Positions 9,172 to 64,000 of a stretch of 64,000 nt of DNA are shown here, piece by piece. The notes below the pieces were generated by a model, which did no database searches, was not told the DNA's origin, and was given only the letters and a program-made list of their open reading frames with translations. How positions within the stretch are numbered: position 1 is the stretch's first letter; the number at the start of each line of letters is the position of its first letter. The DNA lies in assembly GCA_020137815.1 (NCBI GenBank), contig CM035350.1, positions 744,001 to 808,000 of the forward strand. The letters are read 5' to 3'. The position numbers and the translations under genes are program-made. This stretch comes from Hormiphora californensis (Eukaryota; Animalia; Ctenophora).

Positions 9172-9260
<89 letters not shown>

Positions 9261-10232
9261 CAACGTGAAAAAAAGGGAAAAGAAAACAGGGTGTATTAAA
9301 AGGAAAACAACACTGAGAAAATAAAATGAGGTGTTCATGGGAAAGGAAGCAGTCCCCAGTCCACGGACTGCTTCCTTTCCCATGAACACCTCATTTTATT
9401 TTCTCAGTGTTGTTTTCCTTTTAATACACCCTGTTTTCTTTTCCCTTTTTTCACGTTGTTTTTCAGCTAGATTGAGCTGCTTTGTGTGTTCCTATTTTTC
9501 AAGTGTGTTTTTTACATGTGTAATTTTGATCTGATTTTTGTTTCATTATGTTTTCGTACACCGCACTTTTCGTACCCCACCCTACTGTGTTTTTCCTTCC
9601 CTTTTTTTACAGTCCCTCCACCCTTAGTATTTTGTATCCCTTGTTACTGTATTGTTCTCATTATGCGATCTAACCCAGACACCCCCTTTCGCTTGGGGAG
9701 GGCCTGGAGTGAGTGGGTCGCCCGGTCTGATCGAACTACCTAGTCAATTGACCATTTCGTTCATACCGGGCGTACTCGTTTGCCCTGGGTGCTCCCCTTG
9801 AGAAGGATGGGACCTCTTTTCCCCTCTAGCTCTAACCGTAACACCCACGCCCCTTTCTCTTGGGGAGGGCCTGGGGTGAGCGGGTCGCCCGGTCGGATCG
9901 ACTCGTCTTTCTTGCCGGGCGTTACTCATTTGCCCCGGGTGCTCCCCTCGGGATGAGGTGGCACCTACTTCCCTTCTAGCGTATCCCACTTTAGATCCTT
10001 TCAACGTTCCTGTCCTGTTTTCCTCCACACATATCCATCCTCCAGCTCCATACTCCTGCGGAACTATATTCCCCACAAGCCTGTGGATTTTCGAGAAACT
10101 GTTTTTAGTGCCTTTTGTTTTTAGTGTGTTTAGCGATTTTCCTCGCACGGGGACGGACTAAATTACGGACTGTTTTATAGTGTGTTTTCCATTATTTTGT
10201 TCAATTTTAAATTTTTTCAATCAATCAATCAA

Positions 10233-31500: not shown

Positions 31501-34500
31501 CTTTTTTCAATCTTTCCTCCTCTTCTAATCTGGCCTTTTCTTCAGCCTCTAGCCTCAACCTCTCTTCCTCTTCTAACCTCGCCTTTTCCTCCGCTTCCTT
31601 CTTCAGCCGTTCCTCCTCCTCTAACCGGGCTTTCTCTTCAGCTTCAAGACGCAGTCTCTCCTCTTCTTCCAATCTTGCTTTCTCTTCGGCCTCTTTCTGT
31701 AACCTCTCTTCTTCTTCAAGTTTTGCTTTTTCTTCAGCTTCCAGACGTAGCCGTTCTTCTTCTTCGAGTCTAGCCTTCTCCTCGGCTTCTAGTTTTAGTC
31801 TCTCTTCTTCTTCCAGTCTAGCCGTCTCTTCTGCTTCTAATCGCTGTCTTTCCTCTTCCTCCAATCGTGCCTTTTCCTCCGCTTCCAACCGAAGTCTCTC
31901 TTCTTCTTCTAACCTGGCCTTTTCTTCAGCCTCTAACCTCAGCCGTTCCTCCTCTTCGAGCCTAGCTTTCTCCTCCGCCTCTAAACGCAATCTCTCTGCC
32001 AGTTCTTTCTCAAGACGTTCCTTTTCCTCAGCTTCCTTTCTGAGTCTCTCCTCTTCTTCAAGTCGGGCCAGCTCTGCAGCCTCTTTCTTCAATCTCTCTT
32101 CCTCAAGGATCTTCCTGGCATCCTCTTCTTGTTTCAGAATCTCTGCCTCCTGCCGTCTTTGTTCCTCCAGTTTTTCCTGTAGTTCCTTCTCCGCCCTTTC
32201 CTTCTCCTCTTTCTCTCTCGCCAGACGGGCCGCTTTTTCTGCCGCTCTCTTTCGCTCTTCCTCCTCTTTTTTCAACTTCTCCAGTGCTTTCTCATTGGCG
32301 TAAACTGAAAGGAAAATGGCACCGTTACAATTAGAACAAACAAAACTTTAAAAACCTAGTTCATATTGCAGAGTCTTATCATCAAGAGGGTCTCATCATT
32401 ACCTGGATCAGTACCATTAACAGATACAGCTATATCAACCTTCTTCCTCCGTTTAGATCTCCTATACAGTAGAATCATGATGATGATTATCAGACAGAGC
32501 AGGAAGATAAGGCCAATACTGAGGGTTGAGTAGAGGACTGCATCCACTACGGCACCCGCCACTAACACTTGTATCTCCATGGAAACGGAGTTGAATCCAT
32601 TAGTTCCAGTACAGGTGAACATTGTGTCGTCCCCACTCTCCACTGGACTAATGAGTAGTGCACCATCCGATTGTACCTGGAGAGAGTTTAGAGACAGTTA
32701 GTTATCAATTCAGCCATTACTATTCAGATTGTGAAACATTGTTGTCCCCCTCTTCTTACCACATGGTTGAAGGTTCCATCAGTTTTAACTATTGGTAGGG
32801 ACACTCCATTCCTCTTCCAGGTCACTGCGGGGGTAGGGGTGCCACTAAACTCACACAGCAACACCGCTGATTCTTTCTCCTTAGTTTCAACGACTGGCCA
32901 GGTTCCATTCCTCCACTCTACAGGGTACCCCACCACAACAGTCACATCCTGGGCCTTACTGTACTCCTTGCCAGCATAGCTATTACTAGTTAGACAGGTG
33001 AAAACATGCTCTCTACTCTCGTTCAGATAGAGAGGGCCAATAGGGAAGCGGGATATTAGGGTGGAGGATTGACCGTTAGTACCCTCCTCTGTAGTCATAT
33101 CCCCAGTATATGATGCAGGTATGTTGACCCAGGTGACACTAGGCATTGGGGCACCCTGGGCCCCACATTCCACTGTTCCCACCTGGCCATCCACAACATA
33201 CATAAAATTATCAGATATGAAGTGAGCCTCTTCAAACACTAACACAGCTGTGGGGAGAGAGAATGAGTTGGGACCTCCCAATCACTAATATGTGATACTA
33301 CATACTGTCTACTGTTCGATTCTAAGTTCCTTCAACTTACAGCTGATAAAGACAGACCCACTGGCCATGGCAGTCTCGTGTTCATTGTACGCAAAGCACT
33401 GGTATAGTCCTGTATCATCAACTACTGAGTTGGTGATGGTCAGAACACTCTTTGTAGCGTACTCCCCTCCGTTAATCTTGTAAATTGTAGTACTCCAGTC
33501 CACATGATCTGGAGAGAGAGAGAGAGAGAGAGGGAGGTTAGCACGTTATGGACACCTCGACAGAAACGGAGTGTGTTCTAAATCCCATGATACAGCTGAA
33601 AGCTAGTGTGTTATAGGTCCCCATACATTTATCTGATACAGCTAGAAAGATACAGCTCTGTTCCCCAGCCCCTACTTACTATTCTGTTTGACAAGTTTCT
33701 GTCCGTCAGCATACCACTCCATAGTGACCGGTGGGTTGCTGGTAACCTCACACGTTAGGGAGAAGTGGTCCTGTTTCACCAAACTCTTGTCAGTTGGGGA
33801 GGTGGTGAATTGGAGGGAGGATACCACCCAGATAGGAGTTGACACAGGCACCTCGTCAGATCCAACAGAGTTCTCTGCAATACATACATAGGTAGCTGTA
33901 TCGGACATTGTGACTCTCTCTATCGTTAGGGTGTACTGAAAGAGAAGGTTAGGTTAAATTGTTTTAGGGACGGATTATGCACAAGAGTAGGGGTCGAAAC
34001 AATAAGTGTTAACTCAACTTTATGACACTCTAACCCCCATCACTTCTCTCCCATTATCTCTTTTCTCTCTGTTCTCATTACCTCGTCCTCACTGATGGTA
34101 AACCGTGGAAATGATGCAGGGCTATCTGTTATCTTCTGGTTGAGCCCCTTGTACCATGTTATAGTTGGCTGCTCCTCTCCATACACGCCACATGTAATGG
34201 TAACAGTGTCCCCCTCTGTCAGATACACATTCTTATCATTCCACAGAGTAGTAGGGAGGTTCCTGGGTGTTTCTATTGCTGGTTCAGTGACCACCAGGAC
34301 TGCCACCCTACTCAGTGCCTTGACACCCAACAACTCGTTACGGGCCTGGCAGGTGTACTTGCCCGCGTTAGAGGTGACAAGATGGTGGAGGATCAGAGAT
34401 CCAGTTGGTGTTATCAATGTGTTATCATCTGTCAGTGGGTCTCCATCCCTGTAGAAGAGAGAGAGGGTTAGAGCCATCTGTCGATTGGTAGGGAACTGGT

Positions 34501-41741: not shown

Positions 41742-44700
41742 TCAGAACAAGTTGACAGCCTTCTTGGCTCTGATTTGTTTCCACTTTGGCAACTTGTCGT
41801 ACTCTTCTAATGACATCCCAAACACCTCCAAAAAGTCCCGGTCCTCTAGGTACCTCTGAAAGGGGGAGAGCTGGTTAGTTGTACATAATTAGATCACATA
41901 TCAACATATCTCTTAGGCAGCCGGCAGGGATGTATCTATAGACGTTTGTTTAAATACATAATATCTAATAGTCAGAGTTTTTGTTATTCTCTCTGTGGCT
42001 GAACAAATGAACCAGACGGGTATAATGTCGCAACAAGTTTCGAGGATCTACCTCTTCATCGGGCTCAAATTTATTTGTTTAAAGTAGTGTTGAAAAGTTT
42101 GAAACACTACTTTAAACAAATAAATTTGAGCCCGATGAAGAGGTAGATCCTCGAAACTTGTTGCGACATTATACCCGTCTGGTTCATTTGTTCAGCCACA
42201 GAGAGAATAACAAAAACTCTGACTATCAAACATGAGGCTAATAAACAGTTATCCGATCACCCAACTGTCATAATATCTAACAGACAAAAGAAGTGATACC
42301 CTCCATAAAAGGACTGAAGAGACACCTCACATTTCCACGACTCACCTCTTTATTGACAACATCCACTCCATCAGGAACAATGTTCTTCACTAGTACATCA
42401 TACGGGTACTTCCTGCTGTATTTCTCTAGCTCCTCGTCCACAGAACTAACCAACACGTCCCCAAACTGGGCCACCAACTCCTCGTACGATTTACCACCCT
42501 GTAAAATAGGGGGGGGGGGGGTGATCAGCTTACTATAAGTATACAAAACCAGGTTACATGCATGGCTAGAGATAGGTATGTCAGGCCAATGCTCTAACCG
42601 CGGTTCTCACGTGAGAACAGGGTCACTGGTTAGTCCAATGATGATACTCTGACAGATGGGACTTACCGACCACTTCCTAGGATCCCACGCCTGGAAATGT
42701 CCAGTGAACTTGGGAGGTTCCATGCCTTGTTTGACAGTTAACATTTCCACCTCTGTCTCGTCCCTCCCCGAGGGATCATTGCTAATGTACTCCTTCGCAG
42801 CAATCAGGCTCTCCTTCTTCTCTATATCATTGGCACCCTTACCAATCCACACAAACAACTGGAATGGGTGGATTTAGATTTAAATTTTTTTTGGATGGTT
42901 AGTACTGATAGTGATTTCGGTTATGATCACGTGTTCATATTGCACGTGCATGCTCCTTCATAAAACTAACCGCTATTCCGATATCCAGTAACATTATATC
43001 ATCCTCTATCAAGTCATCCTGGTTAAAGTTATACACCTCCTCTGCATTGAACACTCCACACGCATTGCTAAGCTGGAAGAGTCGAGGTGGTCGCTGGTTG
43101 ACAAGACTCTCTAGCTCCAGCCCATTAGCGTACTCAGTTTTACCTCCCAGTGCTGCCCAGAACTCTCCACTCTCGTTCTCCTCCTCCAGCTCTACGGTAC
43201 CCACTGGGAGAGAGAAGAGAGATAGTTACTGGGAGTAGTTATTGGGGGATGGTTGGATGGAGAGCAGGGTAAAGTTATCGTAATACCTGGCTCGTTGATT
43301 CCTATAAGGGCGGGTCTGTCCAACTTTTCTGAAAGAATCTTTCCAGTGTGTTTCTCCTCTGCATCACAACCCTATAATAATAGGTTTAGAGGATGTTGGG
43401 GATGCACATCTCATATTCCCTCCCTCCCCCTCGGCCTAACCCGGGCCCACTTTTGGCTTTTGCAATTTTCTCTTATCATGCCCTCCCAAATAACTTACCT
43501 TACCGTACCAGATGAAGGTCTTGTTCTTGGTGAGGAATACAAATGAATCATTACTGTTTAGACTGCACGCCTTGGGCAGAACCTCTATCGTCCTAACGTA
43601 CTCATTCAAACACTTGATGTGGAAGAGTCTGGATGTAGTTGGCCCAGTCCCCACACTACCCTCCAGATCTCCCTTCCGGGTGTGATTGAACCCGCTCTCT
43701 ACCCCGCCCTGTAGAATGGTGATCCTCCTACCGAACATCCTCATGAAATGGAAGGGTTCCTTCCCCTGTACCACCCTGACTGTCTGTGAGCTCCACCCCA
43801 CCTCACTATCAATCCTAGTGGCATGGAGGGCTGCTGACCCCTTCTCATCACTAGTAGAATGAGATCCCAACCAGAAATATGTGATATAACTCTCGTGGTT
43901 GCGGCCTGGCTGTATGTAGGTGTATAGGATCACGTAACTGTCACCGTCCCAGAAGAACCCGTACATCTCAGGAGGGACATCCACCAACTCAAAACTCTCT
44001 ACCCTCCAAATCTGGGGAAGGGGATTGGGGGATTAGTAACACTTTTAAAAAGAGGGTCTCTAAAACACTGGTCGGGAAGAGACAAGAGGGAGGGGTAGCT
44101 ACCAATCTAAAGATCACGGGAGGGTGGTGTATACTACCTTGATAGTTCCACTTCCATCGTCTCTAACATCATCCTGCATCAGCTCCTCCTTCCTCTGCCT
44201 CTTGTAGAACCCACTCAGATCCACACTCTGCTTCTTGATCTGCCCTGGTTCAGGGTCCACCTTGGTCGGCAGGTTGACAGTAGGAGAGGGCCAGGCAGAG
44301 AAACAACTTCTAAACAGGTTGTCTTCAGCCCCCTCTACCACCCTACAGAGGGGTGTCCACGTTGGGTACCCCTTGTCGTTGATGAATTTCTAGGGAAAGG
44401 GAGATGATGTTGGGAACTGCGGAGAGGAAGGGGAGGATGTTAGGAACTGGGGAAATGGGGTATATAGTAGGGGTTGTAGGAAACATTTCAGGGGTTTGTA
44501 TTAGGGGTGGAGATGGTAACTAATTAATGAATTGGTAATTACCTGAGCATGCATGAAAGCTTGGTTTCTCTCCTGTTGTGTAGCACCTTTCCCAATCCAC
44601 GCGTACACCCCACTGTTCCCCATATCCAGTATAAAGGCGTCCTGACTATCCAGCAGATTGTGATCTAGTGGTGCCTGTCCTACAGGTGTGATCTCTACAA

Positions 44701-47700
44701 ACCCTGCCTCGTCACACACTCTGTACAGTGTGATCTCTCTAGCAGTCTGGTCGGCTAGTTCATCATCCCCTCCCTCCCCTGCTGATCTGATCAACACCTC
44801 CTCACCAGCAACCCTCCCCAACTGATCATAGAACTTCTGCCTCATCCTCTCATCCTCAGGGGATGCCAGCATCATGGTCCCCCTCCCTCCCTTCTCCTCA
44901 TCCCTTATCTTCCTCGCAAACTCCATCCCCTTTATCTTCTCCAACCTGCTGCAGTCTGCCCCAACCCACACCCACACTGCATCTTTAGTGTCCAACACGA
45001 ACACATCCCCCTCGTTCATGGAGTCCCAGTGAACCTTGGTCTGGGTGATCCTGATCTTCCTCCTGCCCTTGATGTGGTACAGTTTCTTGCGGTACTCTAA
45101 CTTCTCTACCTGCTGGAAGCCTCCATCAATACCACCCTCGAGGTACCTGATGTGGAGGGGTGTGAGTTGTAACAAGCTTCTACCTGACAGTGACCCCTTC
45201 CTTTTCAATTGGTTTCCCTTTCTTCTCTTATCCATGTATCTAGGACTAGTACAGCTACTTACTGTATGCCCTGTTTGAAGAGTGACTGGAAGCGGTCTGA
45301 TTCGTACTCCTGTACCTCCCTGTGTTGTATGGGTCCCCCTCCCAGACTGTCATCCAGCTCACAGGACTTGATAGCTGCACAACCCGCCTCATCCTGATAC
45401 ATAATGGGGTTAGAGGTTATAGTGGAGGGTATGACAATGTGTTGCAAACTTGGTTTGGGATATTGGATATCAGGCAATTGGGGTTTTTAATGTATGTGTG
45501 TCGATCTGTCGTGATCTAAACTTTAAAGTCTGTCCATTTAGCGTTGTATTCATACTAATGACCGTGGGATATTCATTTTTACGAGCTCTCAGTTCTGTAT
45601 ATTAGTGGCTGATATAGCGAACTATAGGGAGGGTAATTATAGTTCTAAAATGGTCCGATAAATGAGTGTTCAATTCGTGACGTACAGTGACGTGCATGAC
45701 AACAGAATACAGATAAAGAAAAGTTCTTATTTTCAATAGTTGGAATAATTATTATACCGATATTAAATAAATCATTGCACAATGAAGGGAGTCTTTGATG
45801 GTTCATTTTCCTATAGATTCACACATTCAGTGACCCAGGTGTCCCTCCTCTCGCAGTGCGAGAAGGGACTATTATATTCTTCGTAAATATTATACACTCT
45901 TCTAACTAAACTCCTCCTTATATTATGCACACATATTTAATCAATCCACTCTCTAGATAAAATATACAAGGCTCTAGACTAAACATTTGAACATCAAAAT
46001 TAATAGAACTACACCAGCACATTATTACAACACTCCTGAGTCCTCACACAATATACAACACGTCCATAAAGTACATCCGTTAGAGCAATTTACAAGACTA
46101 ATAGTAATATGTACAACTTTACAGGGCCCACTTTACACGCCGTGTTTAGTACAGTTTACTAACAGTTTCTATATCATCAGGAACATGCACCTGTCCAATG
46201 TCCATACACCAAGTATTACCACTAGGCAGCTGATATAACCCGGATTGTTACTTTATATTAGGACGGGGTATCTCCACCACTGTGTCTCCACTCTCCATCC
46301 CCCTTCAACTGCAGCTCAGGTCAATAAGATTGCTCTCCATGGCCTTCCTGATGTTAGCATACCTCCTAATGGCAGGGAACCTATATGCAGCCCCACTCCC
46401 CTTACCTCCTCCTCCACTGTTAGCGGTACACCGTGTTGATTCTGGGGATACCGACCGGGCCCTCCCTGACCCCACCCCTCTCCTCTGCACGTTGGGCTGG
46501 TAGCTGCCCCGGGGTTCAGGAGTGTACCGTTTAATTGGTTTCGAGTAGAGCCGTGATCTGGCAGGGTATGCGAACTGATCAAACCCATGATCAGAGAAAC
46601 ACCGAGACCTGGGTTCAACATATGTCTTGGTAAACTCGGTGTTGAGTTTATTGATGTTTTCAGCATTCTCCCTCGCCTCTCTGGCCCTCATTATGGCCAC
46701 CTTTTTCTCAGATATTATCCTGGCCGCCATGTGTAGAACTAGTGCCTTGAGCATACAGTTTTTATTGCCCACCACTGCAGGAGAGCCACACGTCCGGGCT
46801 ATAGCAGCAGCCCTGGTTAACACATCACCTTTTTCGGTGGCGATCTTCCTAGCAAAACCCTCTGCGAACTTGCTCATAAAATTACTCTTCCTCACGTTCT
46901 TCTCGAAGACCTTCTTTCCAAACTTCTGTGCAAAGATACTCTTGGTTTTGCTGGTGCTGGGTTTAATGTTAGGACTCTCATCTACAGTCGGATCTGGTTG
47001 ATCTGGACCCCCTGGGTTGGTACCCTGAACTGCAATGTTCTGACAGGAGGAGGTGATGGTCTTGCTCATCTCAGTCTGGGCATACTCCCTGAGCAACAAC
47101 CTCTCCAACTCGTCCAACTCTTCCTGGGACAGGGCAGGTGGAAAGTAGAGGTGTTGTAGAGGTGCTTCACGTAGCTGCAGTCCAACATGTGGGTTAGGGT
47201 AGAAAGGGGTAAAATGGCACACTTTCTAACGTTTTAGGTTCTAAAATACTCAATTTATACAGCAAGAAGAAAAAAAATTATATAGGCTATCCAATGAAAC
47301 GTTTTCCTTTCAGACGAGCTAAATTTTAAAATCTGAAAGTTTTATTTAATAGCTTAATTAATCAATTCAAAAAGTTTGGTAGGGCTTTTTTTGGAAATTT
47401 TGCACTGGGGTAAAATGGTCCAGCCAATAGCATTGCTCGATTTTTATCACGTGCCTGGTGTTGTTAGAGCACTGGGGTAAAATGGTCCATGTTATCTTCA
47501 GTAATTTCTGTTCTGCTGGACCATTTTACCCCAGTGTGCTGGACCATTTTACCCCAGTTGGTATCACGTGGTATTGGAGGCTCGATTTCATTGGTCCCAG
47601 GGTGAACCATTTTACCCCAGCGAGGGTGAACCATTTTACCCCAGTTTGACTAATTTGACAATTTAATCAACTTAATAGTGGGTTTTTTGAAAAATTTTTA

Positions 47701-50700
47701 TACCAAGTTTTAGAAGGATAAAAACCCTAACTGGCAGTTTTTGCAAAATTAAAATCGGCCAACTCAAACAGAAATTACAGCAGTTTTAAAGCAAAAATTC
47801 GGAACAGAACGAGCAGGTCTCCGCTGGAGAAAAAGTCACGTGACTACATGTAATAACTAGGACCATTTTACCCCATACATGTGCCATTTTACCCCGTGTG
47901 CCATTTTACCCCTTTCTACCCTATAACTAGCAGCGGTAGGTTATCATAGCGGGGTACTGACAAAGATAGCAACTGATAATATACATGTATAGAGAAACTA
48001 GCTAGGAGCAACAACAATTAGCTTTCTCACTCGGCATTTGAGAATTGAGATAGCTCTCTGTCTCCTTCCCATGATCTCTTAGTTCCTCTTTAACCCCCCC
48101 CCCCCCTCTCTCTCTCTCCTGCTGCCCCTCTGTACTCACCTGAATCATCTCGTTCTGGAACCTCATGCTGTTACTACTTCTCTCCAGTGCATCCACTCTG
48201 GCCGTAATGGTGGCCATTGTCTGTTCCTCATACCTCTGCAGGTTCTCTATTCTCATCAGCACTCTGTGTTCCAGATCCTCTAGTTTCCTAACCAGGGTAG
48301 CGTTGATATCCCCCACTATCTTTGTGACCATCTCACTGCGACCAGATGTGAACATGGTGCTGCAGCTGGCAAGTAACAGAGTTTGCAGTAAAGTAGAAAA
48401 GTGGTGCGGACAGAGGGAGAGAGAGGGAGAGTCTCTCTGTACATATGGGAACCAATAGAGTCGCGGCGTGAGTGGGTAACCAGGCAACCCCGCATCATTA
48501 GCTGTACTGTTGCCATGGTAACAACACGTGATCTACTACGCATTTCCGGTACACACAGCGTAGTACTTTGCTCCTTATGTTCTCTCTATTTCTCTCTTTT
48601 TCTTACCCCCTCTCTCTCTCTTTCTTTCTCTGACAGGGTCATGAAATGGTCTGTAACAAAACTTGAAGTAATTGCTCCTCTTTTCGTATTGGACACACAC
48701 ACGCATACTCTGTGGTAGGACTGAGAAGATAGAGAGAAAGAAAGATAGAGGGGAGAGAGAGAGAAAGAAAGATAGAGGAGAGAGAGACTTCTGGAGAGTG
48801 GCCTAGGGGCTATTAGCTTCTCCCATCCTCCTTCTCCAGCTGGTCTACAGACAAAAGTGGTTGCTTGTTTCATAAACGGATTTTCCAGTGAAATTTTCCC
48901 AAGATTTCACAAAGGATAAAGACTCTTTTCCCAAGAGAGTTAGATGATGTGAAAAATAATCCCAGGTCATTAATTTCTAATCACTCTGTGAACTTCTGTG
49001 ATGTGGTTACTTCATGGCAATTGGTATGGAAGTCACCACAAGCAGAATGGGACCGTGAGAGAGTATCTTACACACACATTTAGTTCAGGTCATTAGCTTC
49101 GTCGAAAATTTCCACAAATTTTCGTTCGAGGTTGTTTCGAAGTTTCGGATCGAATTTGGGGGAATTACAGTTTGGGATATTGTGTGAAGAAGTCGGACAT
49201 TCTCTACCGCTAAAGATAGCCGATAAATTAACCAATATGGGTATCAAAAACTGCTCGAGACGGGCTTCCCTAGAACTATTTGAAACATTGTTTAGAGATG
49301 GGTGACTATTCTTTGTGTGACGTGTGTGGAGACGAATGACCAATCAAAATGTCAGATTTGATGGAAATTGGAAATTGTTCCTGGATCCATCTCTCTTCAA
49401 GTTTGTCAGTACTTTACAATATGTCTGTCTGGCGCCGCGACCTATCTGAGCGCACAGAATCAAATGGGGTATGGCGCCGCCATACAGCAATATGTCAAAT
49501 ATTCAATTTCACATACCATTGAGGTGCTGGCTCCCAACCAGAAATGAATATGCCACTCATACCGCGTACTGACTTGCTGCGTCTGAGGGAGAGAGAGAAC
49601 AGGAGTTAAAAAGTTTCAGTTTCAACAAAGAAGAAGAATCACTGTCAGAGCATTGGCTTGACCTTATTCTCAGTTCTCGCACGAGAACTGTGGTCAGACC
49701 ATTGGCCTGACAGGAGAATCAGAATCACTAACTGCTTACTCACATGTAGAACGATGTAGCTGTCCCCTGTATAGAACTTGCCATACAGATCAGGAGGTAC
49801 AGGAATCACTTTGAACTTCTGTACAGGGAAGGAGAACATGATTAGATATTGGGATATGTGGGTCGTGGGATATGCTTTCAGGGACCGGGCAATTAGGACC
49901 GGGGAGGTTTATGGCCTACTGAATATTTAACTCAGCTCCCTACCTCTATCCTCCATATTTCTAATCCTGGGCTCTGTCCTACACCAATGAAGGCCTGGTC
50001 TACAGAGGTAGTTGAGAAGGTCTGAACGCCGTTTAGCTGCTTAGACACACCTGAAACAATAGCTGTTAATTGAAACTGCTAAATTTAAAACAATTAAAAG
50101 TAAAACGAGTAGAAGTTTAAATTAAATTTAATCGGTCATTTGGTGACGCGGCCACCCCTACACTAGCCGCGCGCAGCGCGGCTAAACGAAGCCCGCGAAG
50201 CGGGCTGAGGATGAGGGGATGGCATCACCAAATCGGTCATGTTCGTGGCTGTTCAGTAATGGGTGTTAGTATAATTAGACCTTCAAGAGCGGTGACCAAA
50301 TCCCACTCAACCATGATGATGGTTCTCAAGATATAGAACAAGTGGTGAACTAAACAATATGTATGGTGAACTGCAGTTCTACTTCAGTGCTACGCTTGCT
50401 CATTCCATATAAACAATTTAACAGGCGGCAGATAGACAGAAGGGGCAGACAGAGAAGCAGTTATGTGGAGGGCGGCACCGTGGGATTGCACTGCCTGGCG
50501 ACCCAATAAGGGACTGCACGGGATCTGGAGGGGGGATTTGACATGATCCTTATTACCTCCACTATCGAAGAGTCCGAGAGAGAATTCACTGGTAGACTGT
50601 TGCAACAGGACCCCCATGATAGCGCGACTAATAACGGAACGAAGATTCTTCCAACTAAATATATTTCCACAACCCTCAATATTACTAGAACGTGTTCTAA

Positions 50701-51622
50701 CTAAAGTTCTAGCGATACAATAATGGGATTGTGGGCAAAGCAAACACACTAAAGCGGGAGTTAGAATATGTCCGAGGGTTTGGGGAGAAATATCAATTTC
50801 AGGGGTATCAGGGGATCGATATATGCACAAAACCTACTATAGTTCTTCTTATGGATCCGTCTAAATCTAATATGTCATCTCTTTATAGTTGCCTCCTTGG
50901 ATGGATGGGGGGGGGGGGGGGTGATATCGCAACATGATTAAAGATCTAGCAACTCCGCAGAACTGAGGTATATCTGATCCAGTCGACAGCTCTAGCTGAA
51001 AGTGCGTGATATGAACCTGTAGGCATGCCACCTAGTCCTACTACTACTCTCTAGGACAGGAATATATATTTTGTGGGGAGCCACCTCTTCCAATGAGGCT
51101 GTTGTGCTAGACGAAGGACTACCTCCCCTGGGTATCAATTACAGGAGGGAGGGGGACAATGGTTAACGTGGATGGGAGAACAGCTGCAGTTCTGGCAGTA
51201 GAGTGGAACGTATAGCTGTAGGTTACAAGCTTTTTGTTCCTTTTTGTCAATAACAACAGTAATTGATCGGGGCCGATTTAGGACAAATTGCTAGGAGAGC
51301 ATGTACGACTGAAGGCTGCAGCTGTTATAATGGACATGTAAAGACTACAGAAGACCGACTGTCTCAATCATCAGTTGATATGAAAAAGAGAGGTCAACTA
51401 AACAGTAAACACAATGGATAATTGAGATACCACACACAGCATGTTGCACTGTACTGTGCTGTGTTAGGGTGTTGCAATTGCAAACCTAAAAAACCCCCCT
51501 TCCTCCCCTCCCCTACATTGAACAACCTACCTTCACAAAGATCCTGTAGGTGATTCTTATCGGAACTACAGAACCCAGACATAACAACACTACTAGAAAT
51601 GTAGAGGAGAAATAGATAGACA

Positions 51623-51653
<31 letters not shown>

Positions 51654-54600
51654 TCGAGAGAGAGAGAGAGAGAGAGAGAAGAGAGAGAGAGAAAGGATAT
51701 ATTTCGCTGGCAAAGTTGTGAGGTGTGAGCAGATGGCGGCAGGATCCAGTTATTGAAGCAGGCAGAATAAAAGATTTATTTCTCTTTCAACTACAAACTC
51801 CTTCTGTTAGTCCTCAGCACCCCCTCTCTGTTCTTCTTCTCTGTCCTCTCACAACCCCCTCTCTCTTGTGCGGGTGGAGTAATGAAACTCTTGTGGCCCC
51901 TCAAACCCTCACTACACAGTGGTTTTTAGGTGGACATAGGAAAAAAATTTTTCTTCTAAAAATGGTTCTATCCGATAGATATTAGTCCATAGAGTTGTAT
52001 GCCATGCGACCCACCGATTGATTGCTTCAGAATCGATGCGTTATTTGAGTTTTTCGTCATTTTTGACTGTCATTTTTGACTGTCTTTTTTGACTGCCATT
52101 TAACTTGCAGGGTTTTAGGACGAGACGAAAAATAGACATATTCTTCAATGTATGTTGTCTTGGAAGGGCAATTAGGTGAAATTTCAAAATTTTTGGAAAT
52201 TTTTGAAATTTTTTTTTCGGAAAGTCATTTTTCAGCCAAAAACGAAACATAAAGCTATGTCATACACAGAGTCGTCATGAGTCGTCACGGGAGACCAGTT
52301 TTATTTGAAAGGCCTGACAAATATCTATCTTTTAGTGTATGGGGCACTTCTCCGAAACGATCCGAAAATTGGGTAAAAAATCATTGATTGAAGCGTGTTT
52401 TTCACTTTTAAAAAATGATTTTTTATAAATGAGTAGCTGAGGCCTGACTTGACATGTTTTCCGACCTATTTTTGCACGTTAAATCGATTGCCATCAATAT
52501 CGGAGCTCTAGAACCATTGCATCACACGGCTATTTGCTATTTTGTGAAAAAATCCATATTTAACCAAAATATGAAAAAAATAACAAAAAAGCGTTTTTCG
52601 CCTTTTCACTTCTTATTCAGGCTCATAATTTTATCAGCAATCGATTTCTCGTCCAAAACAAGTGTGGGATATCATGCAAAACATCTTAGTAACTGCATTT
52701 TGAAAGAAATCTTAAAATCTGGCAGTTCTTAGTCTTCATAAATAGAACAAAAATTAATCAAAATAGATGAAATTTTCAAATCTAGCCAAAAAATGTCCAA
52801 AATTTCATTTTAAAATGTTTTCTGCTTTCTATCTCATCATCTTGACCACTTTTTTGCAAAATAACAACGAAAAAAGACGAAAAATCGCGTTTTGACCCCT
52901 TTTCTTTAAGTAAATCGTCTTAATTTTATCAGCAATCGATTCCTCGTCAAAAAATAGTCCGGGGTGACTACGTAAATTTATGCTTTGAAAAAAAATATTT
53001 TCCAGCACCATAATGATTCGCCGATATCTCCGTAACCTTTCAACCTAGAGCTTTGAAACTATGTGGAAACGTATTTTTTGCATCGGTTTACCCTAGGAAC
53101 TACCCCATGTGATCCAAACATGTGTTGATCTACCCTATGTCACCCTACCCCCCTCAAAATTACCACTGTGCACTACCCACATTGATTCCCTGAGAGACAC
53201 TCTGTGGTATACAGTGTGTGTCATTGTGTCAAACTAGGGGACATGATGTGTGTAGAGAGATTGGAGGGGGTGGGTCATGAATTATATTCCTGGTGGTAAC
53301 AACAGTTACAATAGTTACTGTAAATTACAATCGGTATAGAGGCAGTCCCTTGTTGAAAGAAATCCAGAAAATTCAATAAGAACACAAGTCATGGATATCA
53401 CATGGTCTTGGCTTGTATATTAATTTAGGCAAACCCCAAGTATTTAAGTGCACCTAGTGCTCTTAAAATCAATAAAGGGTGCTAAGATACACACAATCGA
53501 CTCTACAAAAGGGGAATTATTATCATGCTGTGTTAGGGCCGCCTCATTGAAGTCTGTGGCTGCTGGGAGGTTTTAAGCATAATATATCTGTACTACCACT
53601 GCAGCCACCTCTCACACTTGGCACACACACCTGTTATACATCATATCCACTATTATATTGCAACATATGAAGTGAAGGGGCCTAATATAAACCCTAATTT
53701 GGGGACACTACTACTACCAGTACTACTATAAAGTAGGTTCATGACACTATTGACTATAGTAATACTAAAGTGTCATGAACCTACTTTTAGTATTATTAGA
53801 AGGAAGACTATGTGTGTTTAATAGAAGGTCTAGTGTGTGTCACACACATCTGATATGCCTACTATTGTCCAAACAACCACGTAACACTATATTGACACGC
53901 TGTCACTGTGTCATACTATAGTAATAGATAGCTGAGATCAAGAGAGGGAGAGAGGGAGACTGATAGACTGATAGAGAGGGAGAGATGAAACCGATAGACA
54001 ATTGAAGCAGAGTGTGTTACTAAAAGACACTGTCAGGACAGTGAAAAAAGTTTTATGTAGTCAAATTCAATACAAACAGTTGAACATGATATGAGTTTGA
54101 TAAACACAGGCCCACTTCCACGACCACATATCCATTAATATAGTCTACACCTCTCATAAAGCTTCAATTTGTCATAGTCAGCAAATTGTCACGGCCAACA
54201 ATCGATATGAAACTACAGGAATCTGTCAGAGTGCTAGATAGTACGTGATAGCGATGCTCTGCAGTAACATGGCCTCTAATGGGAGTGCGTTGCTGCGTTT
54301 TGCAAGTGTTGCAAAGGTTATCAACTACTGCAGAGACCTTATCTCTTTGTCGACTTTTTACCCCTAAAAGACCTAGAAACACCTAAACTTTGTAACTTAT
54401 CCACACTACTAGAGGGTCCTAGGTTTCAGTATAGTGTGGACTGTGGAATGACGCCTTATTCACTAAAATGAGAGCCCCGACAATTAGTTTAGCAGGAATA
54501 TCACCCTAACAATTAGAATCCCTATTCACACAATTGCTGCAGCTCGAATGCTTAGGATGCCCCCTCTCACACACAAGGGGAGGAATATAACCACCATGCA

Positions 54601-55309
54601 CCTAACCATCATTCTAGAAGTTTAATAATTTTACCATATAGAGCTGTGTTCAGGGTGGTAGCTAGAGATTACCATATTATGTCCTGAACACTAGTGAACT
54701 GATACTTCTCGTATGGAGGGCGAGTGGTGTATGTCTGAATACCAAGTGGAGGGGGGGAGGTATATTCATTACGTGGTTTACTACACTGAATGAATGAGGC
54801 GTGATGCATATCTCGAGCGGGACAATGGTACCTGGAGCTGGGCATGATAATTAGAATATGAGAGAGAGAACATTATGAGAGAACATTATACATTCCATCT
54901 CTGCTTTACAGTCATTATAGCGATCACCGACTTCAGACAATATCGCACATGCTTTTACCGGGAGGGGGGTCTGTCATTTATAATGTGTCGAATGTGTTAG
55001 AATATGAGAAAACGAACATGAGGACGCCGGGGGAGGACATTATTCCACCTGCTTTACAGCTTTAGTCATTATAGCGATCACTGATATGACTCTAGTGATT
55101 TCTAACATGACCTTACCGGGGTCTGTCAGTGTGCCGAGATGGATAACAACTGAGCCCCAGTAACATTTAGTCGGTTTTTGTGGTTGTCTGAACTGACGAC
55201 TCTGTGAGGGTCTAACAGCTGAGAGATGTGTGATCTAACCTGCGGTAGAGAGTCGTTCATCATCCAGACTGTACCTCTTCTTCATCTGGCACACTGTTAT
55301 CGGCCTCAT
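41742..55309 (-). CDS. Villin/advillin-like actin-binding protein (six gelsolin repeats plus headpiece)
   Basis: [94 protein letters not shown] and headpiece [27 protein letters not shown]. Candidate first coding exon 55309-55240 is in phase with exon 50051-49943. Confidence 0.93.
41968..42226. repeat. Perfect 124-bp foldback carrying a degenerate minimal hammerhead-like motif (Penelope pLTR-like)
   Basis: Arms 41968-42091 and 42103-42226. CCGATGA-AGAGG-TAGAT-CCTC-GAAAC lies at 42132-42157. Confidence 0.6.
46305..48355 (-). CDS. Uncharacterised two-exon gene (N-terminal coiled coil) nested on the same strand in a villin intron
   Basis: Exon about 48355-48140 ([22 protein letters not shown]...) joins in phase 0 to exon 47174-46305. 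Start codon uncertain. Confidence 0.65.
47197..47921. mobile_element. Tc1/mariner-pogo-like MITE
   Basis: TA|GGGTAGAAAGGGGTAAAATGGCAC...GTGCCATTTTACCCCTTTCTACCC|TA, with multiple internal CCATTTTACCCC motifs. Confidence 0.85.
50140..50231. mobile_element. 92-bp T-shaped hairpin insertion with a 9-10-bp direct flank repeat
   Basis: ATCGGTCAT at 50131-50139 and 50232-50240. Outer stem TTGGTGA..GCCACCCCT/AGGGGATGGC..TCACCAA and two inner GNA-triloop hairpins. Confidence 0.7.
51915..53170. mobile_element. Non-autonomous Transib/RAG-like transposon with RSS-like 12/23 asymmetric ends
   Basis: Direct TSD CACTA (51910-51914 and 53171-53175). CACAGTG at both ends. ACATAGG follows 12 bp (left) and 23 bp (right) of spacer. 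No transposase ORF. Confidence 0.88.

Positions 55310-55718: not shown

Positions 55719-55808
<90 letters not shown>
55672..55808. repeat. (GA)n/(CT)n microsatellite; others at about 9148-9254, 18504-18604, 35669-35745, 51625-51690, 60290-60408
   Basis: Directly visible dinucleotide runs. Confidence 0.95.
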
Positions 55809-55812
<4 letters not shown>

Positions 55813-56214
55813 GTACTCCTCCAAATAGGAACAATGAACATTTCATTGTAGCAGTTTTCAAAGGCCTGCAGAGAAGCAAACATATACTAGCTGGAGTGTG
55901 AGAAGAAATAAAAGTAGAAACAAACAAACATCAACAGTTTGAAAATAGAGGTCAACGGGAGATGTAAAAGCAATTAGTGATTGAAAAGCACAGATCTTTA
56001 GAACTAGAAAGTAAGGCATATTTTACAATTAACTTTCAGATTAACATAATTACGATTACTATAAATCAGGATATTATATAAGACGTATAACTAAGTTGTT
56101 CAGAGAGAGGCATAAGTAGTGGTCCTATAACCACAAGATTACAAATGATACTCACAATTAAGGAACAACATTGAGAACTTTATTTACAGAACGGGGGAAG
56201 AAAGTAGTAGGCCT
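55808..56214. repeat. ~410-bp sequence duplicated at 63583-64000, each copy preceded by (GA)n
   Basis: Near-identical sequence; the second copy carries many small indels. Confidence 0.85.
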
Positions 56215-57970
56215 GGATCAGGGAGGTTCAGCGGGTTCAATTTGTCAACATTCACTTCACACTCTTTATATGCACTTTGCAGACACCTTCCTATTCATAT
56301 ATAAAGACTCCCCCAACGGCAACAGCTAATTCCACAATGAAAAGACCGGGACAATGATCTTTGAAAAGACTCACCCCTCCTTCTCTCTCTCTCTCTCTCA
56401 GCTCCTCTCTCTCTAGGAGAAGCCAACAACGAGAACAACAAAAAGATGACACCAAAATGATATCTGCTATAACGAGACTAACCAGAGTCCTTATCTTTAC
56501 CTCGGAATTAGGACAGAAAACTGGGGATCAAGTTGTGTGCCCTCTGTGTGGGATCGATAGAGGGGTGATTTTGCTGGTGTCTGTTCAAGGGAGGCTGTTC
56601 AGTAATGTGTGTCATTAGTAAACTTAGTTCGGAGCGGTACAATTACATAGAACACAGATCAGACAGCGATAGGAAATGCAGAGAGAGAGAGAGAGAGGGG
56701 AGAGAAACACACAGACACTGCTAGTGTGAAGTGTCTTAGATAGTGTCTTAGACAGAATAACTCGTCATTCGTCATTCGTGACCCACATAATGAACGGTGT
56801 CCGGATATGTTAGAGGAGATTAAAACTAAATACTAGATCCAGTAGGATTCTAAACTACATTATACATTTCCGATACATGATCGAAGAATGCATGATTAAG
56901 CTCAATTCTAAAAGTATACAAATCGCTTTCCTGTTCCAAAGAGTATTACTGTCGACATAGCTATTAATACTACCGGTAAACACCATGATTGCAGCCTAAC
57001 GACTGGAAGGTCGCTGTATTGGCCATCATCGTGATGCTTTTACTTAGCGAAGATTCGCCACATAATACCCTCTCAAATATCAAATATACTAATAACTATC
57101 TATTTCTTGGCTCTTTCATTTAACCATCATGCTAAATTTTGACTCTCCACTCCCATTATCTCTTTCTCCTAAATTCATAACAGCAGGCCATATGAACTCT
57201 GGATGAAATGAAGATGGAGAATCATTACTGGTAATTTGGAAGAGAGAAATATAATTGGAGAGAATGTTCATTAGTACTGCAAGCAATGAACAAACTGCTA
57301 CTACTGAGGAGTCAGTTACTGTAAAAGTAGGAGTCACGCAGGGACAGGGACAGCTTAGCCCGAAATTGGAATCAATGTCCGCACCAATTTGTAGAGTTTC
57401 AACCCACGTCGGACCGTACTTTGAGATCTCTCACGCGGAAATTGAGCCACACATTTCGGAATGTAAAGGTAAGTATAATCATTTATATATACACGTATAG
57501 TGTAAAATAATGAGCACGCACCAAAAGCCTACGCTGACTACTCATTCGCACTTTCAAAAAGTGCTACGTACAAAACACGAGCATACAAAACACCAACCAG
57601 ACAACCCCCACACAACACGAAATACGAAACACGACATCACAAAAACACGAATCATATACCGCGAAAATTCAAAACACCTAACCTATTAAAAGAAAAATCA
57701 CACGCCATAACCCCAGGGACGGCGCTGGTTGCGGGGTCCGGGTGTCCGCGGACACCCAGACCAAAAAAGGACGGGAAGAGAAAAGAAGAAAAATGAAAAC
57801 AAAAAACAAAAACAATTTGAAAAAAAATCGTTGAAACTGCCGAAAATTTTGGATTGCGCGCAGCCGGGTGTCAGGAGCGTGCCTGGGCACCCAGGGTTCA
57901 GCGCGCACCTGTCGCACGGCCGAGCTAAAGTCCGGATTTTTTGAAGTTGTAACCCCCCCTTCTAGTGCGC

Positions 57971-60304
57971 CAGGGACGGCGCTGGGCCTGGCCAGCAAGT
58001 CCTGGGATGTCCGGGGACAGGTGCGAGCCCTCGGTAAGGGCGGGTGGGGGGTGAATTGGAAACCCCACAGCCGGGGTCCAGGTGGCGAGCCCCGCCAGGG
58101 GGTGTAGGGGGCAGAGCCCCGCAGGCAGGGGGTTCCACGGGGATGCAAGCCCCCGGTGGAGGTGAGGGGGCAAAGCCCCCCGAAAATTTCGCACATTTGG
58201 AGGCGTTTTAAACGTTTTAAGCATTTCTGGAACTCTTTGTGTGAAAAATGGAAAAAAAAAAGATTTGAATTGCAAGGTTTCTGTTCACAAGAGAAAAAAA
58301 AAAACTCATCCGAGCGTGCACACAAACTTTCTGGGTGAACAGGACACCCTGGTCATTGTCTCAAAATGCACGGTGGCGGCGCGGAAGAACCCTCTTTATG
58401 CTCTGCACGTGAGTTTACGGTTGAGCCGCAGATGAACCTGGGGTCGGCAACACAGTGGACCACGCGGACAGTTTTTTTGAGCCCACCGAATTGCACGCGC
58501 AAATCAATGTCCGCGCGCACCATTTGTAAGAGTTTTCAATCTCTTTACATAGCGCGTTCTGGGAAATCTATGTGAAATACTTTGCGCGCTATTTTCTCTT
58601 CACAGAGTGTTCCAGTGTGTACAACGCGAATCTTTATGGGGGGTGTGAGCACCCGATACACTCTGATCTGTTTAGTGGTTCCTAAATTTGCCGGAATTTT
58701 TAGTATCAAGTTCACAAATTACACAGTTAACATCCCAAACATACGTGTGCAGAAGAATTCCCATTCGTGGGTCCTCCTTTTATAATTTATGAACGCTAGC
58801 CTTCTCCCGTTCTCTCAACTTTCACTACCTCACTTTGGCACAGAGTGATTACCGTGATTATTTAGCAATGATAAGTTACTCCTCGGGCTGTGTGAATGTG
58901 ATGATTACGATTTTCTGAAAGGGATCTCACAACTAAAATTGACGTTTCATCTCATGACTTCTTATTTATGCTTAATGAGAGGTAAGAGTTACTTGCAACA
59001 ATAAGCATGATTTGGATTTATAGTTGCGGATTTGACTGTGAAGTGCAAAACCCACGGTGTTCTAACTCACCTCTCCTCTCCCCAGATCTCCGCGATTTGC
59101 ATGGGGTTAGATGTGCCTGAGCTGAGATGTGATTCGGTTAGTGGTGCCTTGATGTCTGATGAGGAATCAAAACACACCCAGTTCGAAGAGTAAACTCTTT
59201 AACCACGATACAAGAGTTTCTGCTGACCGATAACTTAAAAAAAATGGTAGGAGGTTAAAGTAGTGATTCGGGAGTCTGTTGGGTTAGGTTATCTGTTTGA
59301 GTTTTTTTGAGTTAGTTATTTGTTTTGTGTTTACTACTATGAGAAAGTAAGATGTAGAGTTTATTGCAAAGAATTAGCCATTGGGTTTATGGTTTTTTTT
59401 GCTTATCTCCTGTGTTGGTAACCCACGGCCACACTGTTTCTAAACACCATCCCCCCCCCCCGGTGCTGCCACCCCCCCCAGGTGATGATCCCATATGTGT
59501 ATGTGATCCCAATATGTGTACAGTATACGTAACTCCCGCGAGTGGGTCATGTGTAATGGGTGGAGATAGAGAATTACCAAAGAATGGATGAGAAACAGTC
59601 ACAATTGGTCTGGGAAGAGTATACCCCAGAGTGAAGAAAGAGCTTTTTGTTTCGGCTCTGAGCTGAGAGCAGGAGATTAGAGAATGGATGAGAGGGTGAT
59701 TTGGTTTCTTCGTGATTGACGGGGAGCAGGAGGTCCAAACCACACCACCCAAGTTAATTATGGGAACTGGACCTTCTGAGGGGACATTAAAAAATGGTAG
59801 GTCAGGTAATAAGTAGTGGTGCCTTTGTATGAGGTTTTATTAATTCTTAAGAAAGAGAGTGTAGAAGAGGCTCACGTTGAGAGGAGCGTCGAGAGAGGAG
59901 GAGAGAGAGAGAGGAGATAGAGTAGAGAGTGATAGATAGCTGGATAGGGAGCGTGAGAAGAGCAGAGTAGAGATGAGAGAAGGATGCTTTGTAGAGAGCA
60001 GGGAGAGAGAGACGAGCGAGTGAGAGAGGGAAGTAGAGAGAGAGCGAGGCGTAAGCGAGCGAGATAGCGAGAGATCGAGAGAGGCGAGAAGAGAGGAGAT
60101 TAAGAGAGAGAGATAGAGAGACGCGAGTAAGAGAGGGGACGACGCGAGCGCGAGAGCTAAGAGAGATAGATAGAGCGAGAAGATGAGCGTCTAGAGCGGA
60201 TCAGAGAGATAGCGAAGTAGATAGAGATCTAGATATAGCGATCGAGAGAGTAGCGCGCAGATCGAGAGAGATACGTATTGAGAAGAGCTCTATCTATCTC
60301 TCTC

Positions 60305-60368
<64 letters not shown>

Positions 60369-61718
60369 GCTCTCTTACTCTCTCTCCTCCTCTCTCTCTC
60401 TCTCTCTCGACTTACCCTTCTTTTCAGGTAACAGTAGGATATAGGCTCCTTGAAGTGCAAACCGCAAGATAGTGGTTGCAGTGAGAACTTATCATATGTT
60501 CACAAGATCGTCGGACCAATTCAAGGGACACATTGCGTTTCATTACGGGGTGTGTTGTGATTTTCAAACTTTGGGTCTGTTGCACCGTAGTGAAGAAAAT
60601 GAAGTTCGTCCCGAGGTGCCATAAATGTTATGTACCCGGATAGATAGGATAATCGATTTGCTTTCGTGAAAGAGTTGTAAACATATATTCAGAGCGTGTG
60701 TAACTTATTAGTAATCCGAATTATTAACAATTAAACCCCATGTTTCTATTTGTTTCCGGCGTGAGGAAGGGTGTATTCTGGCCCGTTGAGAAATTAGGCC
60801 AGGGTGTGGGAAGAGGGGAGGAAAAGTCTCCTCTTTAATTTCCGTGAATTTTAAAATCTCAAACATGACAAATCCTTGTGTTTTACCACGGCTCGTTGCC
60901 AGATGCACTACAAGCTCGAATGGTTACTCATATTTTAATTTCAATTATTCTGTGCCCAATCACAATATCTTCGGTGGGAAAATACTGGGATTGTCTCATC
61001 TCCACACTGAGTCCTGAGAGCTCTTAAATGGGGAAAGTTCAACTCTCCGCACAAACACTAGCTGGATATGACCGCGCGAGCTGTACAAACGGAGTACAAA
61101 CGTGAGTATTGTAAGCACTCGTTTAGAACGTTCTTTCCTTCCACGCGCAGTGTTCCCGCGAAACTCAGTGGGTTCACACCCATCACCACAATCACCATTG
61201 TTCCAATTATGAGAAAACTAGCATAGGGCGGAGTAAGATTTTTTTTGGAGGTTAAAGGGGGACTTCCAACGCTTCTTTCAGTAGCTGCATGATACGCTAC
61301 TCGATAGGCGTGTTGCTTTATTTTCCACAATGGTCAAAATCACTATTGTTGATCTGCTGGGCTAAATAAGCACATTTACGCCTACCCAATCAAGCTGCAT
61401 ACACCTAGAACAATTCCCTAACAGTCAAAAAAAACTTGGGGTTTCAAAGGTTTCTGGTTTTCCTGAAAAAGGCAAAAAACGACAGGTCATCGACCGCGCA
61501 AATGTCAGTCGCGCAAACCGTTTGTCCCAAATCGCGCGTTTGGGTCCACTGTGCGGCAGAGCTCCGGACACCCGGCTGCGCGCAAATCCAAAATTTCGCA
61601 GTTTTCACCGATTTTTTTCAAATTCTTTTTGTTTTTTTCCATTTTTTCTTCTTTTCTCTCTCCGTCTTTTTGGTCTGGGTGTCCGCGGACACCCGGACAC
61701 CCACGAGCGCCGTCCCTG
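57971..61718 (-). mobile_element. Second copy of the same hAT family, inserted in inverted orientation
   Basis: CAGGGACGGCGCT termini; TSD TAGTGCGC/TCGTGCGC (7/8 match). Arm order is reversed relative to the outer copy. Confidence 0.85.
58451..61553. mobile_element. Second Transib/RAG-like element (innermost of the stack), ~3.1 kb
   Basis: TIR CACAGTGGACC; TSD CGGCA (one extra A on the left). GGACA motif with ACA after 10 bp (left) and 21 bp (right). No intact transposase seen. Confidence 0.75.
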
Positions 61719-64000
61719 TCGTGCGCGGAATGTTTTTGCGAGTCACATCACATGTTAACGTGTGGTGTGCGCGTCAAAATTGATAAATTTCACATGCGCG
61801 GTCATTTTGGGGTGACAACTTCAAAAAATCCGACTTTAAAGAGGGTTCTTCCGCGCGCCACAGTGCATTTTGACGTGACCAGGGTGTCCGGTTCACCCAG
61901 AAAATTGTGTGTGCGCGCAGATGATTTTTTTTCTCGTGATCAGGAAACTTTCATCTTTTTTTCCATTTTTCACAAAAGGAGTTCAGAAATGCTTAAAATC
62001 GTTTAAAAACGCCTCAAAATGTCCGAAATTTTCGGGGGGGGCTTCGCCCCCTCAACCCCCACCGGGGCTTGCAGCCCCTGGACCCTGCCTGCGGGGGCTC
62101 TGCCCCCTACGCCCCCGCCGGGGCTGCGCCCCTGGACCCTGCTTGTGGGGGGTTTCACCCCCCACACCCCCTGACCGAGGCTGCCGCCCCTGGCCCCGGA
62201 CACCCAGGGACTTGCTGGGCCGACGGCCCAGCGCCGTCCCTGCATAACCCCAACCCAGGGGTGGTGCATGGCTCTCAGCCAGGGCGTCCTCCCTGGATAC
62301 TAAGGGTGTGAGCCGTGAAGCAACATTTTTGAAAGAGTCTGGACTCTGGGGCATTGGCATACGTTGCAGGCCCCTTATAATATAATATAAGGGGCCTGGA
62401 GGGAATACCGCGCTAGGGGGGGAATACATAATCAATCATATCTCCGGTTCCAGTTAAGGTACAAAAATCGTTTTGGTAGCGTTGGAAAGAGGAAGATAAC
62501 AGCTTTCAAATGCAACCGGTTTCAGGTCTCTATCTTATCAGGAACAGGAGATATGAACCAAACTCCGCAAAATCGAGTGCGGTAAAATAAAAAAATTCGA
62601 GATTTTAATTCAAATTTGAAACAAAGTGTCCCTGCAGGGATCTGTGACGTCACTTTTTGAAAACAACCAATCTTTGAACGGCTATTGCTCAGCTTCCTGA
62701 AGTCCAATTTACTTCTCTCAAAAACAGCAAGGTAGATAATTGTCAGATCTAACAGCTAGTGAAAGAATCAAGTCAAACGGACTTCAGGGGCCAAAGTTAT
62801 AAGCACCGCCGTTTTTTCGCTCGCAAAGTTATCTTCGACCCAGCCGGGCCCGTCCTGAGCTCAGGCCAAACGCGCGCGCGGCATTCCCTTCAGTCCCCTC
62901 GTTGCGGGGGTGCGCGCATGAGGGGGCTGCAGCGCATTCCAATCTGGGGCATTTTTTCAAATCTGGCTGAAAAGAAATCTGTCGCTTAACTTGAATTAAC
63001 GGAAAATAGTTAAAAAGCGTCGCTATTAATGTAACACGCGAAATATGTCTGGATACAAATGGTTAAAACGCTGCCAAAACTTCAATTTCTTAAGCCGCGC
63101 GCTGATAAATTTGTTTTCGGTCAGGTGAAATCGCCCAAACTTTTTTTTCTTCTTTGAATCACCATTTTCTCCCTTTGTCGCAATGAAAAGTGTCCTGGAC
63201 ACACAGAACAGTGTTCAGTAGACAGCCTAGCTTCACCACAGCCGCAACCCGAACCCTAGCCGTAAACCTAACTTTACTTTAGGCTTTAGCCCTAACCCTA
63301 AAAGGCCGTGATGTTGACACTCAAAACACGTTTCCCGTTACAATCTGTGTGTTTCAAGGAAAATGTTAAAATATTAATATATATATATATTGGTAGTATT
63401 ATAATCTTTCCACGATTTGAACCAATTTCTTTTAGCGATGAAGGCCAAGGAAGAAGCAAAAACTTCAACAATCTTCATCAGAGGCCTCAACACTGGCACA
63501 GATTCTGACAAGCTCACCGAAACATTTACATCTTTTGGTGGTTTTTAGAAATTGTCAGCCCCCATTTGTGAGAGAGAGAGAGAAATAGTAATCCTTCAAA
63601 TAGGAACAATGAAACATTTCATTGTAGCACCGTTTTCAAGGACTGCAGAAGAAGCAAACATAACTAGCTGGGATGTGAGAAGAGAAAAGAAAAAGATAGA
63701 ACAAACAAAACATCAACAGTTTGAAAATAGAGGTCACGGGGAGAGTAAAAGCAATTAGTGAATTGAAAAAGCACAGATCTTTAGAACTAGAACGTAAGGC
63801 ATATTTTACAATGTAACTTTCAGTATTAACATAATTACGATACTTATAAATGGATAGTATATAAGGGACGGTATAACCTAAGTTGTTCAGAGAGAGGCAT
63901 AAGTAGTGTCCGATACCACAAGATTACAAATGATACTCCATTAAGGAACAAACATTGAGAACTTTATTACAGAACGGGGGAAGAAGAAAGTAGTAGGCCT

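Follow-up and report, generated by a model that had tools for sequence, protein, structure and literature searches.

A non-coding element of 1,256 bp in the 64-kb window, the window being the whole stretch of DNA analysed, probably (about 0.8) derives, as a well-preserved non-autonomous form, from the Subgroup I Transib transposons of ctenophores and would be mobilised by a transposase encoded elsewhere. The element is likely a new copy of a kind of ctenophore Transib that has already been published; asymmetric ends in ctenophores are not new, and the combination of a heptamer like that of the recombination signal sequence (RSS) with an asymmetry of one helical turn is expected for Subgroup I Transibs. 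An earlier note on this DNA had proposed that the ends reproduce the V(D)J 12/23 rule, potentially in an early-branching animal. The portion of that proposal concerning a Transib/RAG-type element with unequal bipartite ends is supported, as the end anatomy matches that of published ctenophore Transibs, whereas 12/23 as worded is not. The features of the element and its host intron are the following.

50051..55239, minus strand: intron holding the element, next to coding exon 1 (55309-55240) in a villin/advillin-like gene, with GT-AG borders and an in-frame splice
51910..51914, plus strand: left copy of the target-site duplication (TSD), CACTA, by direct reading and a boundary-shift test
51915..53170, minus strand: whole element, 1,256 bp, 34% GC, non-coding, one copy in the window
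51915..51947, plus strand: short end, with CACAGTGGT, a T5-containing spacer, GACATAGG at end positions 19-26 (51933-51940) and an A7 run
52056..52101, plus strand: internal 13-bp tandem repeat, 3.5 copies
52461..52491, plus strand: degenerate copy of a subterminal motif, inverted relative to the other two copies, 77% complementary over 31 nt
52623..52668, minus strand: subterminal motif, second copy, 85% against the third across 46 nt
52918..52963, minus strand: third copy of the subterminal motif
53132..53170, minus strand: long end, with CACAGTGGT, a G6 run at end positions 18-23 and GACATAGGGT at 30-39
53171..53175, plus strand: right copy of the TSD, CACTA, by direct reading and a boundary-shift test

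The two copies of the 5-bp TSD are identical when letters and coordinates are re-read, and the ends of the element form a perfect inverted repeat of 9 bp. Shifting the boundary outward by 1-3 bp abolishes both the inverted repeat and the 5-bp direct repeat; the perfect duplication in the earlier note is upheld. By direct reading, the left end consists of CACAGTG (51915-51921), 12 nt and ACATAGG (51934-51940), and the right end, on the minus strand, of CACAGTG (53170-53164), 23 nt and ACATAGG (53140-53134); all letters reported earlier for the coordinates, heptamers, spacers and second motif are confirmed. Immediately after the heptamer the left end reads GTTTTT and the right end GTAATTTT. When the first 45 or 70 bases of the ends are compared, the longest common block is the 8-mer GACATAGG, which starts at base 19 on the left and base 30 on the right and hence has an offset of 11. 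TAGG falls at 23-26 of the left end, followed by the A7 run, and at 34-37 of the right end. Two features of the Transib superfamily, inverted ends that start with CAC in an RSS-like heptamer and a 5-bp TSD, are both present. The GC content drops from 46% and 39% in the 1-kb flanks to 34% inside the element. Non-autonomous Transibs move in trans via Transib transposase, generate 5-bp duplications and prefer GC-rich targets, according to PMC1131882. The 35-bp target site here is GC at 20 of 35 positions, by a hand count of this single site, compared with 37-48% GC in 2-kb bins of the window, and the TSD itself at only two of five.

A coding or RNA function of the element was rejected: it contains no ORF of 100 aa, all six of its reading frames, with stops written as X, gave no Pfam matches, and an Rfam search of it gave none. 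In the interior, 20 nt at 52936-52955 are identical, as read by eye, to a subterminal stretch of the published MleTransib_6236. The identity lends weak support to the family assignment and is not family-specific, because 19 nt of the subterminal motif also occur in seven metagenome contigs, one bacterial-looking and two AT-rich, none of which is a copy of the element. The AT-rich metagenome contigs have a 140-bp repeat in common (L091:260-399 and L095:185-308; 77%) that bears the subterminal motif.

The element resides in a 5.2-kb villin intron, because the exons on both sides splice in frame. The first coding exon of the villin-like gene begins MRPITV, as the Mnemiopsis protein does, and joins the exon at 50050 in frame. 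Among 13 matches to the villin exon, the best two are to ctenophores, at 76% and 73% identity, and the DDX46 exon is 87% identical to Mnemiopsis leidyi compared with 53-76% for the other 119 matches listed; these identities place the host among the ctenophores. Host proteins 73-87% identical to Mnemiopsis and Bolinopsis indicate a species different from those two. With the element excised in silico, a 45-codon open frame on the minus strand spans the insertion site, with an AG upstream and AATAAA downstream. The idea that the element splits a terminal exon was rejected because this frame matches none of four villins, nor DDX46 (best E 0.05), and the villin exons splice in frame around the element. 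Host genes at 3597-45400 of the window encode a TAF1-like protein (DUF3591, bromodomain), DDX46, a rhodopsin-family GPCR, an Ig-domain protein and villin/advillin. A villin intron also harbors an element of ∼730 bp (47196-47922), which we take to be PIF/Harbinger-like, with 28-bp perfect inverted ends, repeated subterminal motifs and TTA/TAA flanks. It is adjoined by a 306-codon ORF (46305-47225) with no clear Pfam match.

Assignment of the element to a family relies on the published ctenophore Transibs. Tao et al. 2022 (PMC9435367) reported six Transib-like proteins in ctenophores and asymmetric TIRs in all Subgroup I Transibs, the ctenophore members included. The ends were compared by eye with the supplement text of that paper, with positions counted by hand from the first C. 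All eight labelled ctenophore ends (hand count) start with CACAGTGG, as the element does. In the same supplement text, MleTransib_2823 has GACAT at 20 (3') and 30 (5'), and the 3' end of MleTransib_6236 has GACATAGGGT at 20-29, which occupies 30-39 of the long end here. In MleTransib_3931 and PbaTransib_0868, TAGG lies at 24-27 (3') and 34-37 (5'), and a G-run starts at position 18 of the 5' spacer; in the 3' end of PbaTransib_8175, TAGG at 24-27 is followed by an A-run. The short end of the element likewise resembles the Pba short ends in its TAGG and in the A-run after the block. In an ungapped comparison over 38 positions, the right end is identical to PbaTransib_0868 at 25 and to MleTransib_3931 at 22. 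Because the layout of G-run and TAGG matches the published ctenophore ends, the 5' TIR is likely on the right and the 3' TIR on the left. The element is likely a Subgroup I derivative because its second block recurs in a Mnemiopsis 3' end, and because the G-run and TAGG of its long end hold the same positions as in Mnemiopsis and Pleurobrachia 5' ends. It comes from the same phylum and, like those Transibs, combines a CACAGTGG start, unequal bipartite ends with GACATAGG or TAGG as the second block, and a 5-bp TSD. This likely assignment draws on ∼40 bases per end, compared by eye with the supplement of PMC9435367. Unlike the ctenophore Subgroup I Transibs, the element has no transposase gene; its offset is 11 rather than the 10 of all three published ctenophore pairs, and its short end is one base shorter than all five published ctenophore short ends. 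The Subgroup I traits carried by the transposase, an alpha11-alpha12 region and CTT1, have no counterpart in an element that encodes no protein.

Copies and partners were sought in several sets of sequences. The 64-kb window holds no second copy of the element, and the left-end pattern has no match in the metagenome contigs. A relaxed end pattern matched 88 loci in viral contigs, among which there was no paired end, no blastn match and no copy; their spacers range over 9-26, and neither 11 nor 22 stands out (two and four matches). No Transib/RAG1 Pfam match was obtained in 54 of the 78 window ORFs or in 12 frames, in a search run without a positive control. The 24 ORFs left out of the scan are overlapping frames or lie in tandem, low-complexity or MITE sequence.

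It is very unlikely that these ends arose by chance or belong to a different CAC-ended superfamily such as EnSpm/CACTA or Chapaev. CACTA is also the terminus of EnSpm elements, a single copy is seen, and an 8-bp CAC inverted end with a 5-bp duplication is common alone: 59 of 200 simulated 64-kb windows contain one, and the real window contains two such pairs, the second at 30698-32733. The frequency falls to 1 in 200 simulated windows for pairs that also have a second common block of at least 8 nt. When the bases of both ends were themselves shuffled in 20,000 trials, a block of at least 8 nt arose in 1.8% and one at offset 10 or 11 in 0.17%. The pattern heptamer-N8-25-ACATAGG, which was picked post hoc, matches twice in the window against 0.02 expected, and none of 100 shuffles gave two matches. 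Chance would not be expected to produce the second block, the GC step, the internal motif in three copies or the likeness to published Transib ends. EnSpm/CACTA elements have inverted CACTA termini and a duplication of 2-3 bp, and Chapaev elements a duplication of 4 bp; here, CACTA is direct rather than inverted, and the inverted ends are lost once the boundary is moved to yield a duplication of 4 or 3 bp.

It is highly improbable that the element descends from a RAGL (RAG1L-RAG2L) transposon instead of a single-gene Transib. RAGL transposons such as PflRAGL-A, AanRAGL and ProtoRAG also have heptamer-type ends, a 5-bp TSD and unequal spacers, with an asymmetry that is sometimes 9-10 bp (PMC7204232, PMC10629977, PMC9435367); spacer differences of 10, 9 and 4 bp have been reported (PMC10629977, PMC9435367, PMC8289069). 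However, they carry RAG1L and RAG2L genes and other second blocks, neither of which the element has, and no RAG1L-RAG2L gene pair lies between its non-coding ends. The A-rich TR2 described right after the heptamer for RAGL, PflRAGL-A included (PMC7204232, PMC10629977), is missing from both ends. The scan of 54 of the 78 window ORFs yielded none that is RAG2-like, the ends match ctenophore Transib ends, and the ctenophore elements are named Transib by Tao et al. (PMC9435367). The preferred reading remains a derivative of the ctenophore Subgroup I Transibs.

Similar ends are known outside ctenophores. Kapitonov and Jurka 2005 (PMC1131882) described five insect Transib families with ends resembling RSS12 and RSS23. 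As in Transib5, Transib2_AG and TransibN1-N3_AG, where non-autonomous families are included, the element has unequal ends and a 5-bp TSD. In that paper, the second block of the insect elements is A-rich and nonamer-like, in contrast with GACATAGG here, and their 5' end is described as RSS12-like, whereas ctenophore members have the long end on the 5' side. The element shares with V(D)J RSS12/RSS23 an identical heptamer, CACAGTG, and a second element displaced by one helical turn. Unlike RSSs, its ends have no nonamer and flank a transposon rather than gene segments, and RAG2 is not seen. A nonamer reading of the second motif fails at this point, with four of nine matches at the long end and a G in position 6 at both ends, a position that is listed as essential in the RSS nonamer (Kapitonov and Jurka 2005, PMC1131882); no nonamer with A at positions 5 and 6 follows after 12 or 23 bp. 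The A-run of the left end was also considered as a nonamer and rejected, as it matches best in six of nine positions at spacer 19 and has no counterpart at the right end. The spacers are 12 and 23 if the block is taken to begin with its A; counted from its G they are 11 and 22, the alternative that the note itself had allowed. The V(D)J "12/23" is an over-reading, and the offset is better described as about one turn, 10 in relatives and 11 here. Because its published ctenophore relatives have an offset of 10, not 11, the element may owe its exact 12/23 to a one-base peculiarity of its own.

The region beyond the element contains further insertions. At 57714-62242 there are two CAGGG-ended MITE copies, presumably hAT-like, one nested inverted within the other, and both the inner (about 57972-61718) and the outer copy have near-matching 8-bp flanking repeats. 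The inner copy hosts a second likely Transib-type insertion (58451-61553; 3.1 kb, non-coding) with 11-bp identical CACAGTGG ends and a duplication, CGGCA, that has one extra A on the left and is off by one base. Its long end has GCGCGATT in common with the 5' end of MleTransib_2823 as given in the supplement text, and in silico excision leaves a sequence colinear with the neighbouring MITE copy. A short stretch at 57340-57405 bears a loose likeness to the left subterminal region of this insertion. Over 443 columns, the duplicate stretches at 55795-56214 and 63570-64000 are separated by 28 indel events and 11 substitutions; the differences are mostly of single bases, which suggests unpolished long-read sequence near the end of the window. 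Across the window, repeat pairs show 0-4 indel events below 48 kb, compared with 10 in 169 and 28-30 in 443 columns beyond 55.8 kb, and because of this jump the sequence beyond 55.8 kb is either noisy assembly or old repeats. Long palindromes or fold-back repeats are present at 2059-3457, 9253-9466, 16718-17663, 23092-23694 and 41968-42226.

These observations bear on whether an 11-bp offset is genuine for the family in this species, together with a transposase that requires one short and one long end, that is, a 12/23-type rule without RAG2, which we consider unlikely. The element itself shows offset 11, and the second CACAGTGG-ended insertion has GGACA at 16 and 27, again 11 apart. This second block is only 5 nt long, ties with another 5-mer at offset 3 and sits where repeat copies show 28-30 indel events per 443 columns. 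The activity of ProtoRAG depends on asymmetric TIRs and on spacer length, as stated in PMC8289069, while the published ctenophore pairs all have offset 10 (3/3) and the published short ends all have the block one base further in (5/5). The base missing from the short end falls in the spacer with the T5 run. A sequencing error at the element is possible and not forced, because clean, in-frame villin exons flank it and its internal repeat pair has no indels in 46 nt. The second block of the element is, in addition, not a nonamer. It is doubtful that both Transib families here, the element and 58451-61553, have ends differing by exactly 11 bp with short/long pairing enforced by a RAG2-less transposase. 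If this were true, a 12/23-type rule would predate RAG2 and could be assayed with a natural mini-element; mouse RAG1 alone fails to follow the 12/23 rule (PMC4840297).

For a ctenophore Subgroup I derivative, the mode of action may be pictured as follows. A dimer of a single-protein, RAG2-less transposase would cut at CAC and leave hairpins on the donor flanks. The GACATAGG block would be bound by an NBD-like or C-terminal (CTT1) domain, both of which have been reported for Subgroup I Transibs (PMC9435367). One more helical turn in the long (5') end would keep the block on the same face of the DNA and render the two ends distinguishable, and the one-turn offset could be absorbed by a pivoting domain, as in RAG (PMC10629977).

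In the literature covered, which lies outside Repbase/Dfam and subscription journals, neither a functional assay of any Subgroup I Transib nor an account of ctenophore Transib copies that are non-autonomous was found. It is debated whether end asymmetry came with Transib or needed RAG2 (PMC8355894 versus PMC10629977). For the GACATAGG type, where the supplement text of PMC9435367 labels only a 3' end (Mle_6236), the element supplies the long end that pairs with it. Being short and natural, with both ends and a clean TSD, it provides a ready substrate for a ctenophore Subgroup I transposase.
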